Positions 908-15,519 are shown, numbered from the stretch's first letter. The stretch is DNA of 64,000 nt from Synergistales bacterium (GCA_963666205.1 OY762654.1:2336001-2400000), one strand, 5' to 3'. The notes: generated by a model not told the origin, from the letters alone. Translations and numbers: made by a program.

Positions 908-3727
908 TTATGCTTTTTCAGCATTAACACTGCAGACCTTGGAGTCGTGAGTATCGGAATCCAGGATGATGGTATGTGGGGCAGGTATTTTACCTGAATT
1001 CTCTTCGGTAACTTTTTCTATATTAACAGCACTTATCTTGTAGGCAGGAGTGTCTGAATCCGGATCGGTGACCGCTGCTGTCAGCACATTTGCAGAAGCT
1101 TCACTGAAATGGAAGGGAAGGAATATCATCCCTGGTGCTACACGGTCTGTGATCTTTGCTTTACCTTCCACAGTTCCACGACGGGAGGTTACACGAACGG
1201 TTCTGCCTTCTTCTATGTTTATCTCCAGTGCATCCTCAGGGTTGATCTCCACATAGAGTTCCTTGATGAACTCAGCGGGTGAACTGCGCCTGGACATGCT
1301 TCCGGAATGGTAATGGTAAAGAAGTCTTCCTGTAGTTGCGAGGAATGGATAATCATCATCCGGCCACTCGTGGGGAGCCTGCCATTCACAGGGAGAGAAG
1401 TAGCCTTTACCATTGGGTCTGGCAAATTTAGTCGTGTGAAGAATGGGCGTTCCCGGGTGATCCGGTGTAGGACATGGCCAGGCCAGGGAACCTTCTTCAA
1501 GGCGAGAATAGCTTATCCCCGCGTAACTGGGAGTGCATTCCGCAATGGCTTCAAAAACCTCAGATGAACTGTTGAAGTTCCATGCCGCTCCGAATCTCTG
1601 GGCGAGATCGGTAAGGATTTCCCAGTCTGGACGAGCTTCTCCAGGTGATTCAACAGCTTTGCGAACCCGCTGGACAGCACGTGTGGTATTAGTAAAAGTT
1701 CCGTCCTTTTCTCCCCAGCAGGCAGCAGGAAGGATTACGTCAGCCATCTGTGCTGTTTCGGTAAGGAATATATCCTGTACTACGAGAAGATCCAGATTGC
1801 CCAGGCAATGTCTGACATGATTTGTATCAGGATCGGTGACCATTGGATTTTCGCCCATTATGTAGAGTGCTTTTAATTCTCCCTTACCTGCACCTTCCAT
1901 CATTTTCATGACGGTAAGCCCTGGGTTGGATGGGATATCTGCTCCGTTCCAGAGAGAGTTCATCTTTTCCCGAATATCGGAATCCGTAACTTTCTGGTAA
2001 CCCGTAACAACATTCGGAAGGCAGCCCATATCACAGGCTCCCTGGACGTTATTCTGTCCCCGAAGCGGGTTGACTCCTGTACCAGGACGGCCAAGCATGC
2101 CGCAGAGCAGAGCCAGATTCGCAAGGGTACGGACGTTATTGGTGCCGGTAATATGCTGTGTAATGCCCATTGTGTAGAATATGGCGGAGTTTGGTCCCTG
2201 TGCATAGATCCTTGCGGCCTTTTCTATCATAGCAGAAGGGATGCCGGTAATTTCGCTGGTTCTTTCTGGAGTATATGTGCTCACCATTGATTCGAGTGCT
2301 TCGAAATTCTCTACTCTTTCTTCTACAAATGCTTTATTGTGAAGATTGTCCCTGAGGATGACATGCATGATCCCGTTAATAAGAGCCACATCAGTGCCGC
2401 TTTTCTGGCGGATGTGTATATCTGCACGTTCTGCGAGTTCGATCTTACGTGGGTCACAGACGATCAGCTTTGCTCCGTTTCGTGTTCGCTCCTTGATCCA
2501 TGATCCTATAACGGGGTGCGTTTCTGTAGTGTTCGAGCCAATGACAAAGATAACATCGGCTTCTTTGATAGATTTGAAATCATTTGTCATTGCACCGCTT
2601 CCGAGGGTCTCAACGAGACCCTTGACTGTGGCACTGTGTCACAAATGGGCACAATGGTCAACGTTGTTTGTTCCGATCACCTCTCTGGCCATTCTCTGTA
2701 CCAGGTAGTTTTCTTCGTTTGTGCAGCGGGCAGAGGAGAAGAAACCTATTGAATCAGGGCCAAAATCTTTCCTGATATTATCCATTCGACTTACGATAAA
2801 GTTCAGGGCTTCGTCCCAGGTAGATTCGTGAAAGGCTCCATCTTTCCTGATCAGAGGCTGGGTAAGTCTATCCTCGCTGTGAACGAACTGCCATGCGAAT
2901 CTGCCTTTTACACAGCAACGGCCTTCGTTCAGGGATGTTTTACTCGAATAGTCGGTTTTGACATTGGCTATTCGGCCGGTTTTGTCGTTGACCTGGATAT
3001 TAAGTTCGCAGCCTACACCACAGTAGGAGCAGATGGTTTTGACAGAAGACATTTCCCAGGGGCGGCCTTGTCCCATAGCTGTTTTTTCAGACAGGGCACC
3101 CACAGGGCACATCTGAACACACTGTCCACAGAAAGTGCAGTCTGAGTGTTCCAGGTCGACCCCTACCGGTGTCTGAACCATTGTTTTTATACCCCGGTTC
3201 TGGAAGTCTATGGCATGATACTGGGCCAGACTGTCACAGGTCCGTATGCAGCGGCCGCAAAGGATACACTTGTTAAGATCCCTTACGTAGAAGGGATTGG
3301 CATTTTCCAGGGGATAGTTCCTGCAAGTGTCGCCTTCATCGGCAAAACGGGATTCCTTGATCCCAAGTTCGTAGGCTACATCCTGTAGTTCACACTTCCC
3401 GTTGCTCGGGCAGGAGAAACAGTCCAGGGGATGTCTGATCAAAATAAGTTCAACTACAGCCCTTCGAGCCTCTATTACTCGGTGGGAATGGGTATAAATA
3501 ACCATTCCTGAAGCAGCCGGGGTTGTGCATGAGGGGAGGAGTTTGTTGCTTCCTTCCAGCTCAACGAGACATACTCTGCAGGCTCCGGCTGATTTAAGGG
3601 CCGGGTGGTCGCAGAGTGTGGGGATATGAATGCCGTTAGCCCGGGCAGCCTGCAGGATTGTCATGCCGGGCTCGGCAAAGATCTTCTTGCCATTTATTAT
3701 CATTTCGATACCTTGCATGGTTTCCAT
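908..3727 (-). CDS. fdhF: Selenocysteine-containing formate dehydrogenase alpha subunit (Mo/W-bisPGD) with N-terminal NuoG/HydA-like Fe-S domains, 939 aa
   Basis: ORFs 2639..3727 and 908..2590 are in frame, separated by one TGA (2639-2641). Read-through gives [29 protein letters not shown], the FDH active-site motif. Also CSYCGVGC, PLRGQNNVQGACDMG and a SECIS-like hairpin. Confidence 0.96.
2604..2622 (-). promoter_or_regulatory. Bacterial SECIS element of fdh
   Basis: AGGGUCUC-GUU-GAGACCCU, an 8-bp stem after a 16-nt spacer 3' of the UGA, with a GU-containing apical loop. Confidence 0.85.
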
Positions 3728-3737
3728 TACCTCCTAT

Positions 3738-11735: not shown

Positions 11736-12911
11736 TCAGGAGGATAATTTTTTAAATTTATTTCTATCAGGAATTTGCCTTTTCCCTTTTTCAAAGGAAA
11801 TGGCACCAACGGGGCATGAATTCATACATGTGGCACAGGAGAAACAGTCGGGAATTGTCTTCCCCTCCTGTCTCAGAATGGCATGCATAACGGTGGAAGG
11901 ACAGGCTTCTTCGCATGCTCCACAGGCAATACATTTATCATAGTTGACCTTTATCTTGTAAATGCTAGTCTTTTCGAGAAACCAGCCCACAAGCCCGAAG
12001 GGGCAGAAAAAATGGCACCAGGGACGATATATGAACAATGAAAGGAAAAACAGTGAAACTATAAAAAGAAATCCAGTTATCCCAAGGGCAGCTGGTTTGA
12101 ATATTTTGAAAGGGTCTATCGGTTCCAGGATATCTATTCTCCAAAGTAACGTTCCAAGGATCAGAAAAATGAATGTCCCAACCCTGATGGTGTTCGTAAG
12201 TATAAAGGGCAGTTTGTACTGCTTCAATATGCCCTTGTTATCGCTCTCATCCCTGTTAAGTCTGAAAAGAGCATCCTGAAGTGTCCCTGCCTGACATCCC
12301 CAGGAGCATATGAATTTATTTGCAAGGACAACTGTTCCCAGCAGGAGTGACATTGCAATGAGTCTCGGAGGGAAAATAGCGCCAGTTGTTCCTAAAAGAA
12401 CGACAGCATCTTTGACAGTTCCCATTGGTCCGGGATCAGAACCTAAAAGTACTCCGAAAAGAGAAAAGGAAAATAAGTAATACCATTTTCTATTCACAGG
12501 GGTTATCTTCTTTTTCCTGATCATAATGAACATGTAGGACATAAAGATAAACCAGAGACCGAATTTAAGAGGGATCTTTAACCAGTTTTTGGACTCGTAT
12601 TCTTCCTTGAGGGCAGTCGACCTGGTCAGTTTAATTTTTACCTGCTCTTCCGTCATCCCAAGTTCATCAAACTTCTTTTCAAGATCTGATGGTGAAGTAA
12701 GTTTGAAAATTTCTTTGAGAGTCGGGTTTGGTATGTTATTTGCCTTTCCAAACTCTGCAAGGGACATGCCTGGCAGTATCTGTAGTTCCTCTGCTGTTGA
12801 AGAGATCTCCTTCTCTTCCAGCCAGAGTGAGCTGCTCAGGTTTGAAAGGAACATTACCAACCCTATCATTATGAGGGCACAGCCCAGAATCTTGATTGAT
12901 CTTGTTTTCAT
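11736..12911 (-). CDS. Membrane 4Fe-4S protein (NapH/MauN/NosR-like)
   Basis: Several TM helices, CSWGCQAG and WCHFFCPFG motifs, two CxxCxxCxxxCP motifs. Confidence 0.88.
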   Translation of the reverse strand: MKTRSIKILGCALIMIGLVMFLSNLSSSLWLEEKEISSTAEELQILPGMSLAEFGKANNIPNPTLKEIFKLTSPSDLEKKFDELGMTEEQVKIKLTRSTALKEEYESKNWLKIPLKFGLWFIFMSYMFIMIRKKKITPVNRKWYYLFSFSLFGVLLGSDPGPMGTVKDAVVLLGTTGAIFPPRLIAMSLLLGTVVLANKFICSWGCQAGTLQDALFRLNRDESDNKGILKQYKLPFILTNTIRVGTFIFLILGTLLWRIDILEPIDPFKIFKPAALGITGFLFIVSLFFLSLFIYRPWCHFFCPFGLVGWFLEKTSIYKIKVNYDKCIACGACEEACPSTVMHAILRQEGKTIPDCFSCATCMNSCPVGAISFEKGKRQIPDRNKFKKLSS

Positions 12912-12971
12912 TCCAGATATTCCTCCTTATGGGACAGGTTGCAGTACTCCGATGGCGATAGGGTTAGATGT

Positions 12972-14333
12972 CTATTCTCCCTTTAGCAGATCTTTGATTG
13001 CATTTCGGATTTCCTGAACTTCCTTTCCCAGTTCCTGGGCAATGGTTTTGATGGGTAGTGCCTGGTCAGATCCGGAAGGCCACCCAGCCTTCTCAAATAT
13101 TTTTTCCCCGTCAAGTCCGTAGGTTGCGGCAATTTCGCTCATAGTCATTGATCCCTTTATTTCATCTGGTGGAAGTATCTGTGAAGGTTGCGATGTTTCA
13201 GAGGGTGGCCGGGTTCCCAATCCCTCCTTTAAATTTTCTTTAAGTAATTCGTCATTGACCCCTTCTATATTTTTTACAGGTACGTCCAGGGGGATGTCTT
13301 GTGGAAGTTTTCCCAGTTTGATGACTTCGTCAACTGAAATTGCAAGGGTTTCAGCTATCTTTTCTATGCTCATCCATCCGAAAATCGCTTCTGTAGGGTC
13401 TTTTTCTACTATGGTAGCAGTGGGGGAAGCCCATGTCTGCCATAGGTTTGCTACCCTGGCGTAACCATATGCCCCGAAGAAAATAAACAGGCCAATTATT
13501 CCAACAGTAAGGGTTTTAATGGTTTTGCCTTTCAGGGCAAAGTAAAGGGCTTTTTCCTTTGGACAAGCTTCAACACACTGCCCACATGCCAGACATTCAG
13601 CGCTTGTAACTGTATCTGAAGATTCCGGATCAAGTCTGACAGGACAGTTTGAGCTGCATAAATGGCAGTGAATGCAATGTTCTTCGTTTCTGTTAATCTT
13701 GATTAAAGATATTTTCTGAAGAGGAGCAAGCAAGGCTCCCAGTGGGCACAAATAGCGGCACCAGAATCGTTCGATCTTGAAGCTGGCAAATATGACTGTC
13801 CCGAAAAGAATTATAAAAGCCCATGGTTTTTCGACCATTTCCGATAATCCTGCGGATAGATGCATATAAGCTACCCACGGGTCATAGTCTCTCCATACGA
13901 GGGTCCCCATTTGCCAGGTGAAGTAAATGATAACAAGGAAAATAACATACTTGAGATAACGTAGTTTTGAGTCAACTGCGGGGGGTAGTTCTGATTTTTT
14001 TATTCCCAGTTTTTTCCCGATCTTTGCGCTTAACTCACCAAGAGTTCCCAGTGGGCATATCCAGCCGCAAAAAGTCCTCCCCGTAACGATAGTCATAAGG
14101 ATTACTGCTACAAGGAGAATGAGGGCGCTTGGTGCAACCCTTCTTAGCCAGCCTCCAGAGGTCAGGAAAATATACAGACTTTCCATGCCCCCGAAGGGAC
14201 ATAGGGCATCAACTGCAGGGGCTCCATCAGGACCGCCTCCGAGCATCTGGTGTCTGATACCCACCCAGGTCAGGAAAAGGAGAAAGCCTATCTGTACTGA
14301 CATTCTGATTTTAGAAGACTTCATTTCCAGCAT
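12972..14333 (-). CDS. Membrane 4Fe-4S protein (NapH/YccM-like) with C-terminal soluble extension
   Basis: LCPFGG, FCGWICPLG and WCRYLCPLG motifs, two CxxCxxCxxxCP motifs. Confidence 0.9.
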   Translation of the reverse strand: MLEMKSSKIRMSVQIGFLLFLTWVGIRHQMLGGGPDGAPAVDALCPFGGMESLYIFLTSGGWLRRVAPSALILLVAVILMTIVTGRTFCGWICPLGTLGELSAKIGKKLGIKKSELPPAVDSKLRYLKYVIFLVIIYFTWQMGTLVWRDYDPWVAYMHLSAGLSEMVEKPWAFIILFGTVIFASFKIERFWCRYLCPLGALLAPLQKISLIKINRNEEHCIHCHLCSSNCPVRLDPESSDTVTSAECLACGQCVEACPKEKALYFALKGKTIKTLTVGIIGLFIFFGAYGYARVANLWQTWASPTATIVEKDPTEAIFGWMSIEKIAETLAISVDEVIKLGKLPQDIPLDVPVKNIEGVNDELLKENLKEGLGTRPPSETSQPSQILPPDEIKGSMTMSEIAATYGLDGEKIFEKAGWPSGSDQALPIKTIAQELGKEVQEIRNAIKDLLKGE

Positions 14334-14473
14334 CTTCCTTTCTGGTGAATTTTAATATATTGCAACAAAGAAGAATTAAAGGATTATACAATTTATTATA
14401 ACTGCAAAATCTCCCGATATACACATGGGGAGTTAAAGAACCGCTTCTTCGGAATAAAGTGCAGGTGTGTTTT

Positions 14474-14502
14474 AAAAAAGCCGTCCCCAAGGGAACGGCT
14501 TT
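14474..14502 (-). terminator. Rho-independent terminator after the small Fe-S selenoprotein gene
   Basis: Minus strand AAAGCCGTTCCC-TTG-GGGACGGCTTTTTT. Confidence 0.75.
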
Positions 14503-14524
14503 AAGATTGATTAAATCCATGAAA

Positions 14525-14539
14525 GCAGTTAACAACTGC
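14525..14539 (-). promoter_or_regulatory. Putative SECIS element for the UGA at 14553-14555
   Basis: GCAGUU-GUU-AACUGC hairpin; loop begins 20 nt after the UGA; same GUU loop as the fdh SECIS. Confidence 0.65.
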
Positions 14540-14789
14540 CGCTGCAACCAGCTCAGCCTCCGCCGCAACCACCTTTAAGAGCTGCATATATGGGAACATA
14601 TATATCCAGTATTTCCTGAATATTTTTGTGGCAGTCTTCGTGGGAGGGATCTGAACATGTTCCTGTTACAGAAAGAACCTCTTCGATGGAATCAGCATCT
14701 CTAAGGGCTATTGCTTTAACCACATCCCTGAGTGACAGGTTGCATTCCTCACATACCTTGGTATCCCCTGAAGCTTTAGACCAATCCAT
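14529..14789 (-). CDS. BFD/CopZ-like (2Fe-2S)-binding protein, probable selenoprotein (86 aa with UGA read as Sec)
   Basis: RBS GGGGGTG. MDWS..VCEEC...AI...A.S.EEV..VTG.C...C BFD-like domain. The TGA at 14553-14555 continues in frame as AGCSGSC-TAA, completing GGCGGG-U-AGCSGSC. Confidence 0.8.
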
Positions 14790-14858
14790 TGTTTCACCCC
14801 CCTTGGTTGGCAGGAAAAATATTTGTTTTCTCTGGAATGCCAGTTATAAATTAATTTT

Positions 14859-14897
14859 ATACCCCCGAAAGGTATCATAAGAAGATCGTTTATTCAA
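14859..14897 (-). promoter_or_regulatory. Sigma70 promoter with overlapping CsoR/RcnR-like operator
   Basis: Minus strand TTGAAT-17 nt-TACCTT with extended -10 TG. ATACC-CCCGAAA-GGTAT (14859-14875) is an inverted repeat with a C tract over the -10. Confidence 0.5.
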
Positions 14898-15153
14898 CTC
14901 CTTTTTTACATTTAAGTAAAAATACTTATCTATTGATTTTCTGCTGGAATATCAGACTAATTCTGTGAGAATTTCCTATCACAACCTGGGTCGCTAGAGA
15001 TACAGATTCTTCGTGTAAGTCGAAAAGATCTATACATTGCATTTTTCTGTCATTAATAATCTCAAGGATCTTCATTTCGTAATGCTATAATATAAACAGA
15101 TAATAGCTTCCAATGTTATCTGATGCTGGTTTATTTTGAGGAGGGTAAGACCA

Positions 15154-15519
15154 ATGGATAAAAAACTTGTAAGTTTGTTCTCTGTGATGATAATTTTAAT
15201 ATCCCTTTTCTTCCTGAGTCCTGGTGCTATTCTGGCACATCCACCATCCGGCTTGACCCTTAGTTATGATCCCGCAACCCAGATACTGGATGTACTTGCA
15301 AAACATAACGTTAAAAATCCAGAGTCTCATTTTATAGCTGAATTCAAGGTTTTTGTAGATGATAAGCAGATATACGAGCTTGAAGCTTCTGTTCAGTTTT
15401 CCGAGTCAACTGGAAAAGCACTGTTCTATCTGCCAGATCTGAAAGCAGGGGCAGAAATAACAGTTGAGGTTGAGTGCAATAAGTTCGGGTCAAGTAAACA
15501 GAGCATTAAGGTAGAGTAA
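15154..15519 (+). CDS. Secreted protein, superoxide-reductase/desulfoferrodoxin-like metal-binding domain
   Basis: RBS GAGGAGG; signal peptide ending ILA-HPP; H...HFI and CNKFG motifs. Confidence 0.65.
   Translation: MDKKLVSLFSVMIILISLFFLSPGAILAHPPSGLTLSYDPATQILDVLAKHNVKNPESHFIAEFKVFVDDKQIYELEASVQFSESTGKALFYLPDLKAGAEITVEVECNKFGSSKQSIKVE

Follow-up and report, generated by a model that had tools for sequence, protein, structure and literature searches.

A short gene on the minus strand of a 64,000-nucleotide stretch of DNA from a Synergistales bacterium (GCA_963666205.1 OY762654.1:2336001-2400000; this whole stretch is the window, with positions counted from its first letter) was considered as a candidate gene for a hidden selenoprotein. 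The gene starts with ATG at 14789-14787 and, by standard rules, comprises an open reading frame (ORF) at 14553-14789 that encodes 78 residues and ends in ...ALKGGCGGG, with TGA following at 14555-14553. As reported in a preliminary description of this DNA, the TGA falls within a Gly/Cys motif, and the frame continues beyond it with GCT GGT TGC AGC GGC AGT TGT before reaching TAA at 14531-14529; examination of the minus-strand sequence found all of these codons in place. When the TGA is translated as selenocysteine (Sec, U), positions 14529-14789 yield an 86-residue product with the C-terminus GGCGGG-U-AGCSGSC. On the strength of the sequence comparisons described below, this gene very probably encodes an 86-residue selenoprotein in which the UGA at 14553-14555 specifies Sec. 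The family to which it belongs is widespread in the phylum Synergistota. The features of the locus, including a hairpin resembling a Sec insertion sequence (SECIS), are as follows.

14529..14789, minus strand: coding sequence of the predicted 86-residue selenoprotein, including the TAA at 14529-14531, as delimited by homologue alignments; standard calling gives 14553-14789 only
14553..14555, minus strand: in-frame UGA, putative Sec codon for residue 79, aligned to a near-invariant Cys in alignment A2
14532..14552, minus strand: seven post-UGA codons (AGCSGSC) contributing two to the tail's set of four conserved chalcogen positions, with near-synonymous variation across 23 UGA forms
14524..14540, minus strand: SECIS-like hairpin GGCAGUU-GUU-AACUGCU, from folding; shared by 22 of the 24 UGA forms and absent from all 28 Cys forms
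about 14471..14502, minus strand: intrinsic-terminator-like hairpin with a U-run (fold -16.7 kcal/mol, z -4.24)
14795..14804, minus strand: Shine-Dalgarno-like purine-rich stretch AAGGGGGGTG, 5 nucleotides (nt) 5' of the ATG, recognized by eye from the sequence

A protein search returned nine relatives, five of which comprise 78 residues and stop at GCGGG. The other four comprise 87-89 residues and read GCGGG-C-[AS]GCSG[SC]C, with Cys at the position of the UGA. In the DNA of the relatives, the same codon is either TGA or TGC/TGT. Thus, a metagenome-assembled genome titled Acetomicrobium hydrogeniformans carries TGA together with an identical tail, and two uncultured Synergistales (L010 and L011) carry TGC or TGT followed by AGCSGSCG, giving GCGGG-C-AGCSGSCG. 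When 268 Synergistota genomes were searched with a family profile, matches were obtained in 159, many with no internal stop and many with exactly one TGA. The orthologous group inspected here comprised 24 distinct UGA forms and 28 distinct Cys forms, with two loci originating from metagenomes and the rest from genomes of the phylum. These counts omit paralogues (L063-L080) and two variants (L036 and L044), with three of the paralogues serving as outgroup in the tree described below.

In alignment A2 (41 sequences), the column of U79 holds Cys in at least 90% of rows and C82 is invariant, with the tail, C75-x3-[C/U]79-x2-C82-x3-C86, representing the conserved core of the family. None of the homologues stops at residue 79 with TAA or TAG; each instead presents either Cys followed by [AS]GCxGxC or TGA followed by AGCSGSC. 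The preliminary description had placed the UGA exactly where a Cys would complete the motif, and had proposed that homologues be inspected for Cys opposite the UGA and for coding beyond it. Homologues indeed carry Cys at precisely this position, with the same tail following, and both signs were seen.

The codons that follow the UGA were compared across 23 distinct UGA forms. At codon +1, Ala is written with four codons and replaced once by Ser; GGT and GGC alternate at codon +2, as do TGC and TGT at codon +3; Ser at codon +4 is AGC, TCC, TCG or TCA, with Gly once in its place; and codons +5 to +7 are GGC, AG[CT] and TGT. Codon +8 is TAA or TAG in all 23, such that the stop always comes after seven codons. 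Only two non-synonymous variants were thus encountered in the seven post-UGA codons. Because Ser switches between codon boxes (AGC and TCN) with the residue being kept, which is hard to explain otherwise, translation is taken to proceed past the UGA. In those Cys-form genes that truly end in TGA, the frames found beyond this codon are long and unconserved.

The distribution of Sec and Cys was also considered in phylogenetic terms. A maximum-likelihood tree built from the N-terminal domains (55 rows, few columns) requires four changes of the Sec/Cys label (bootstrap range 3-4). The well-supported branches force at least two such changes, with the pairing being seen in several clades. Repeated Sec/Cys exchange of this sort is typical of true Sec/Cys families.

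The preliminary description had also proposed that the gene carries its own SECIS, in the form of a hairpin that spans the true stop codon and presents the same GUU loop as the SECIS of the formate dehydrogenase (FDH) gene elsewhere in the window. Such a hairpin, GGCAGUU-GUU-AACUGCU (14540-14524), is present and comprises seven pairs, including a closing G-U pair, with its loop lying 19 nt past the UGA. Its 5' arm is part of the coding sequence, the TAA stop falls within the loop and 3' arm, and the last 5 nt belong to the 3' untranslated region (UTR). In its general form, GGCAG[CU]U-GUU-A[GA]CUGC[CU], the hairpin is found at an unchanged offset in 22 of the 24 UGA forms and in none of the 28 Cys forms. 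The two UGA forms that depart from it are L043, with one A-C mismatch, and L061, which possesses a divergent Aminobacterium-type tail and a different predicted hairpin. In a DNA alignment of 21 sequences (A3), 98.6% of cells were paired, as compared with 14-70% when the partner was slid. One pair is compensatory, given how AGC/UAG is found in 19 sequences and AGU/UAA in four, all from the clade of the window gene; with AGT always accompanying TAA and AGC always accompanying TAG, one hairpin pair is kept intact. Synonymous sites of the 5' arm (GGC AG[CT] TGT) are frozen, while those of adjacent codons are variable, and the first four bases of the 3' UTR read CUG[CU] in 22 of 23 sequences. The pattern is rare in the genome as a whole: only 149 of 113,900 TGA trinucleotides have behind them, at +12 to +32, a GTT triloop on a stem of at least six pairs.

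In the available text of PMC13188914, the model of the bacterial SECIS (bSECIS) calls for a loop of 3-9 nt with G in its first two positions, an upper stem of 4-16 bp, a spacing of 16-37 nt and a minimum free energy (MFE) of -7.5 kcal/mol or lower. The geometry of the hairpin described here, namely, a GUU loop, a 7-bp stem and 19-nt spacing, lies within these limits as given there.

The same genome was examined for Sec machinery and for other Sec-encoding genes that could serve as positive controls. As had been expected from the presence of a Sec-containing FDH, the source genome encodes SelB (364 bits; cut-off 242), SelA (564.7 bits; cut-off 267.9) and SelD (333.7 bits; cut-off 125), as well as tRNA-Sec with the anticodon tca. 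The selD gene contains a TGA of its own, with a 7-bp stem and a GGC triloop. Moreover, selB scored above cut-off in all five UGA-form genomes tested, one from each of five genera. In the window itself, the gene encoding FDH alpha (914-3733, minus strand) contains TGA at 2639-2641, with the read-through ORF scoring 910.7 bits on TIGR01591 (cut-off 666); its SECIS, beginning 24 nt after the UGA, comprises an 8-bp stem and a GUU triloop (+24 to +27 after the UGA), bearing out the proposed common loop. Elsewhere in the genome, a small protein with an in-frame TGA (L109, ~G000:C1:578323, minus strand) matched NF041239, the CC/Se-motif model, at 47.5 bits (cut-off 40). A paralogue of this protein (L110, ~G000:C1:2421921, plus strand), also with an in-frame TGA, scored 23.5 bits, below that cut-off. 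As in FDH alpha, the TGA of either gene is followed, at +24 to +27, by an 8-bp stem with a GUU triloop. The hairpin behind the UGA considered here hence shares its design with the SECIS elements of the FDH alpha and the CC/Se-motif selenoprotein of this organism; together with its restriction to UGA forms, this supports the SECIS assignment.

Several observations weigh against the gene encoding a selenoprotein. The compensatory change in the hairpin represents a single event, common to one clade. The fold energy of the region is not better than that of shuffled sequences (z -0.65 and -0.73), and the isolated 17-nt hairpin of the window gene is weak, at -6.4 kcal/mol, relative to the model threshold of -7.5 kcal/mol, as compared with -10.5 kcal/mol in most relatives. 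The 44 nt starting just before the UGA fold with -12.6 kcal/mol, and the MFE outcome varies with the stretch folded. Furthermore, repeats of Gly, Cys and Ser codons also give rise to strong hairpins in Cys forms, the stems of which reach 10 pairs; because such repeats are self-complementary, the mere presence of a hairpin is uninformative, and it is the GUU-triloop hairpin alone that discriminates. Finally, contigs from the RNA libraries of two studies cover the gene, which gives a hint of expression, with one (14512-14603, zero differences) bridging both the UGA and the TAA, yet such contigs reflect presence in RNA libraries, which is not proof of transcription and is silent on Sec insertion.

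Were the UGA an ordinary stop, releasing a protein of 78 residues, conservation downstream would have to stem from an RNA element, for instance a hairpin that stabilises the transcript or is associated with its terminator. In line with this, every public gene call ends at the UGA, many Cys-form members of the family employ TGA as a true stop and the hairpin lies near the 3' end of the transcript. Such an account is nonetheless very improbable, given how the seven post-UGA codons keep their residues while their nucleotides change, including the switch of Ser from AGC to TCN, how they give the same [AS]GCSGSC as is found behind Cys in Cys forms, how TAA or TAG closes the frame after exactly seven codons in 23 sequences, and how the hairpin is of the type found behind bona fide Sec codons in the same genome. 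That the UGA is read by a near-cognate tRNA (for Cys or Trp) or according to an altered genetic code, with no Sec being inserted, can scarcely be credited. Read-through of this kind would likewise yield a conserved tail, but nothing argues for it specifically, while TGA terminates many genes of the family with unconserved sequence following, the lineage possesses a full Sec machinery and the hairpin is exclusive to UGA forms. The 86-residue selenoprotein, cut short by annotation, that the preliminary description had put forward is thus supported by Sec/Cys pairing, by coding past the UGA and by the hairpin, and each of the three checks that it had named as able to refute this reading turned out in its favor.

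For a selenoprotein of this kind, SelB carrying Sec-tRNA(Sec) would bind the hairpin while the ribosome is positioned at the UGA, leading to Sec being inserted. With Sec being found this near to the stop, the SECIS must sit on or beyond the stop codon. When selenium or SelB is lacking, a 78-residue product ending in GCGGG would be released.

Downstream of the coding sequence, the terminator that had been described earlier was recovered by folding as a strong hairpin with a U-run at ~14502-14471 (-16.7 kcal/mol, z -4.24), with only 1 of 200 shuffles being equally good. Judging by sequence, this hairpin would mark the end of a monocistronic transcript. A simple promoter and terminator scan reported no terminators and no minus-strand promoters at the locus. 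As no inverted repeats were found upstream (14780-15140), there is no operator candidate in this region. A search of Rfam with window positions 14300-15200 returned nothing at E <= 1. Contigs from four RNA-library runs leave 14420-14491 uncovered, which does not constitute evidence of a transcript end. On the other side of the gene, a divergently oriented ORF (15136-15519, plus strand) encodes a 127-residue protein with a hydrophobic N-terminal segment that matched no Pfam or NCBIfam family.

The structure of the 86-residue protein was modeled by AlphaFold2 using alignment A2, yielding a mean predicted local distance difference test (pLDDT) score of 80, with values below 50 in the tail. The protein is predicted to comprise a well-folded BFD-like helical domain (residues 10-73), with a strand at residues 11-13 and helices at residues 20-30, 35-42 and 51-73, followed by a disordered Gly-rich tail. 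When the model was compared with known structures by VIA-align, the top four matches were all BFD-type domains, namely, Bfd 4e6k_G (Z 8.0; root-mean-square deviation (rmsd) 1.8 A, 57 of 57 residues), the C-terminus of GlpD (2qcu; Z 8.0), Bfd 6e6q_A (Z 7.8) and 1y56 (Z 7.0), with the next match reaching Z 4.7. A Foldseek search of the PDB gave no match at E <= 0.001; Bfd was ranked first, at E 1.9. At the sequence level, PF04324 was matched with 16.0 bits (threshold 26; E 0.015), such that Pfam membership was not reached, while a homologue cluster (P0008) does have a precomputed PF04324 match. NF045877 was matched with 16.6 bits (cut-off 190), and none of five orthologues matched an NCBIfam family.

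The domain of the window protein contains Cys residues at positions 13, 16, 45 and 53, in a spacing unlike the CxC...CxxC arrangement. Moreover, these Cys columns are not conserved in alignment A2, where most relatives retain one or none, and the largest UGA clade none. Because the domain Cys residues are mostly lost and the tail is conserved, the functional element of the family as a whole would appear to be the tail rather than a BFD cluster site. Of the earlier designation as a BFD/CopZ-like Fe-S protein, the fold was hence confirmed (VIA-align Z 8.0), while membership in the corresponding Pfam or NCBIfam families and conserved cluster Cys residues were not.

A search for cluster representatives yielded 44 at E <= 0.001 among 1.84 billion, so the family is small. 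Fused or longer forms of the family were not encountered among 8000 candidates scored, which constitutes weak evidence. A contig assigned to Steroidobacteraceae (L012) shares 57% identity over residues 1-28 (E 5e-4).

Among known systems, the closest in kind are the CopZ-family (2Fe-2S)-binding selenoproteins, forms 1 and 2 (cd10141; NF045877), which are likewise small, BFD-like and found in anaerobes, with Sec and Cys alternating. Homology exists at the profile level, the family profile detecting such paralogues at E 1e-9 to 1e-13. In those proteins, however, Sec takes the place of a Cys cluster ligand within the BFD domain (PMC13188914), while in the window protein, Sec79 (GGG-U-AGC) lies outside the folded domain, in the C-terminal tail, 8 residues from the end. 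The window family also differs in that ligand Cys residues of the domain are unconserved, with neither the GxUC nor the CU motif being found within the domain. A 2026 inventory of 119 selenoprotein families lists Sec in CopZ/BFD-like proteins at two positions only, GxUC and CU within cd10141 (PMC13188914), and Table 1 of that work, taken as a whole, holds no entry with Sec in a Gly/Cys tail of a CopZ/BFD-like protein. The source genome also encodes a BFD-like paralogue with Sec inside the domain (L111, G000:C1:1524186-1524470, minus strand), in the form PSGT-U-CAGD, a form-1-like GxUC. This paralogue scored 57.5 bits on NF045877, below the cut-off of 190, and presents a hairpin with a loop of 4 nt other than GUU.

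With Bfd itself (PF04324; PDB 4e6k, 6e6q), the window protein shares the fold (Z 8.0 and 7.8, rmsd 1.8 A over 56-57 residues) but does not keep the CxC...CxxC ligand set and possesses an extra Cys/Sec tail. The N-terminal [2Fe-2S]/Zn domain of Archaeoglobus fulgidus CopZ is of the same BFD-like type, there fused to a copper chaperone, while the window protein has no HMA domain. UXX-star (NF041114/NF041211), KCU-star (NF033934) and the Cys-Cys-COOH protein SaoC (NF040734) also carry Sec near the stop and are truncated by annotation (PMC13188914). The window protein, however, bears no sequence relationship to these, with none of their models being found among the NCBIfam matches at E <= 1, and presents seven residues, including two conserved Cys, after Sec. 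The FeoB-associated Cys-rich membrane protein family PF12669 shares a Gly/Cys C-terminal tail, with residues 72-86 aligning to profile positions 25-43 (E 0.013). This match is to the tail only and, at 16.1 bits, falls below the threshold of 27; in contrast to the membrane anchor implied by the name of that family, the window protein contains a soluble helical domain. With CcoG-type cupric reductases and CopZ, the likeness is one of genomic neighbors, with genes of CopA/CopZ type or a NapH/CcoG-like polyferredoxin being found near members of the family.

Prior listing of the family was next considered. The passages found of a 2016 comparative study and a 2022 review do not mention it, and the BSepDB paper, in its available text, builds on previously reported selenoprotein families. 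One entry in the available text of the deep-Sep paper, 'Hypothetical protein DG', superficially fits by virtue of its GUxG motif but was rejected, as it comes from Desulfosediminicola and its model, NF049953, was not among the matches. Public proteins identical to the truncated products are annotated as 'hypothetical protein', as in Aminivibrio pyruvatiphilus (75 residues) and Aminobacterium colombiense (72 residues; RefSeq), and longer members of the public protein clusters differ at the N-terminus only. Within the literature covered, the selenoprotein family is thus apparently unlisted.

The neighborhoods of family members were surveyed across three genes on each side at the window locus and at 20 other loci. 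A CopA-type P1B ATPase is found within three genes in 5 of the 20 other loci (L083, L085, L086, L087 and L089, representing three genera), with scores of 512-528 bits on TIGR01511 (cut-off 397). In three of these five (L083, L085 and L086), a CopZ-like HMA protein is encoded beside the CopA ATPase. A Cys-rich variant (L096) lies in an arsenic cluster, between genes encoding an ArsC-like phosphatase and the arsenite pump ACR3 (374.6 bits). At the window locus, the next gene on the same strand encodes a NapH/CcoG-like membrane polyferredoxin, and so it does in L098 and L099, the nearest two Cys-form relatives. In the window, two NapH/MauN-like membrane polyferredoxins of 453 and 391 residues are encoded in tandem past the terminator of the selenoprotein gene (11736-14333, minus strand). 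Both contain Fer4_5 and dicluster motifs and show weak similarity to CcoG, with the 453-residue protein being syntenic in L098 and L099. PMC7558416, in its available text, describes CcoG as a cupric reductase and attributes Cu(II) reduction to the Fe-S domain of A. fulgidus CopZ.

Because the neighbors include CopA/CopZ, Ars and CcoG-like proteins and four soft ligands lie in a flexible tail, a role involving a thiophilic metal or metalloid is favored. Assuming that the protein is real, the tail may tentatively be viewed, with somewhat less than an even chance, as a flexible site of three thiolates and one selenolate that binds or hands over such an ion. The ion would most likely be Cu(I), with As(III) or others being possible, and the protein would serve as a small cytoplasmic metallochaperone or buffer, in which Sec rather than Cys could provide higher affinity or faster exchange. 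Several points speak against such a role: the family scores below every Pfam and NCBIfam threshold, the CopA genes face the gene of the family convergently and so are not co-transcribed with it, the neighborhoods are heterogeneous, with 15 of the 20 other loci containing no metal gene within three genes, and the U-x-x-C spacing suits a redox selenosulfide equally.

Indeed, in a real selenoprotein, the tail could instead be a redox element, forming a U-x-x-C or C-x3-U selenosulfide and acting as a thiol/selenol-disulfide carrier that might, in the clade of this genome, exchange electrons with the neighboring NapH-like polyferredoxin. U-A-G-C is an instance of UxxC, which recurs more than any other motif in the prokaryotic selenoproteins listed in Table 1 of PMC13188914, and a NapH-like polyferredoxin is encoded downstream, in the same orientation, at the window locus and in both close Cys-form relatives. 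This function is nonetheless rather unlikely, since neither the AlphaFold2 model nor the structural search points to a thioredoxin-like fold, the conserved chalcogen positions number four and not two, a terminator separates the selenoprotein gene from the NapH-like gene, and the NapH-like neighbor is limited to one family of genomes. Less likely still is a selenoprotein in which the tail ligates an Fe-S cluster in place of the lost BFD [2Fe-2S] site, the protein then being a small ferredoxin or cluster carrier. While the BFD-like fold, the loss of domain cluster Cys from most members with conservation of C-x3-C-x2-C-x3-C in the tail, and the weak resemblance of the tail to PF12669 are in agreement with this idea, the tail is predicted to be disordered, genes for iron or Fe-S assembly are adjacent in none of the 21 loci and the PF12669 match lies below threshold.

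The proposed metal- or metalloid-binding tail leads to a broader consideration, given the paralogues found in other Synergistota. Paralogues L063-L071, L073, L074 and L044 retain an intact CxC...CC BFD motif and carry TGA elsewhere in the tail. Their tails read SGCT-U-GGNC then TGA, GGG-U-SA then TGA, QCG-U-GSC then TAA, or SGCG-U-GNC then TGA, and a Cys-form representative (P0074) ends in ...C-GGNC. As these paralogues carry TGA at other positions of the tail, it is suggested that Sec was repeatedly installed in the tails of this superfamily. It is conceivable, if doubtful, that the window protein is the founding member of a superfamily that combines a clusterless BFD-like scaffold, a Gly/Cys tail with repeatedly installed Sec that serves as a metal or metalloid chaperone site (for Cu(I), As(III) or a cluster) with CopA/CopZ, Ars or CcoG-like partners, and a stop-straddling SECIS. 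If true, the use of 3' UTR bases in a stop-straddling SECIS would imply that bacterial SelB routinely decodes a UGA eight codons from the end.

With the protein described here, the bacterial selenoproteome gains a well-supported family, from a phylum whose richness in selenoproteins had been remarked on before. Its notable traits are Sec in a four-ligand Gly/Cys tail borne on a degenerate BFD scaffold and a SECIS that extends across the stop codon. Sec being found among three conserved Cys in a flexible tail, with no thioredoxin-like active site, points to selenium in metal or metalloid handling. Current pipelines truncate the family at the UGA, and tools that expect the SECIS to lie inside a long downstream coding region cope poorly with one that overlaps the stop codon and continues into the 3' UTR. 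Four genes of this genome follow the GUU-triloop rule, which could be of use in uncovering more hidden selenoproteins in Synergistota.

Two other in-frame TGA codons were noted in the source genome. At ~61179 of the window (plus strand), a frame across TGA (...FHG-U-SYGCGN...) showed no family match and non-coding composition, and is probably not a gene. At ~G000:C1:1100757 (L108, minus strand), a 277-residue, secreted-looking protein presents a long Gly/Ser tail that runs up to TGA. All eight homologues of this protein end in a Gly/Ser tail, with no Cys form among them. In L108 itself, SSTC and another TGA come after this codon, together with an 8-bp hairpin at +22 that has a GUU triloop.

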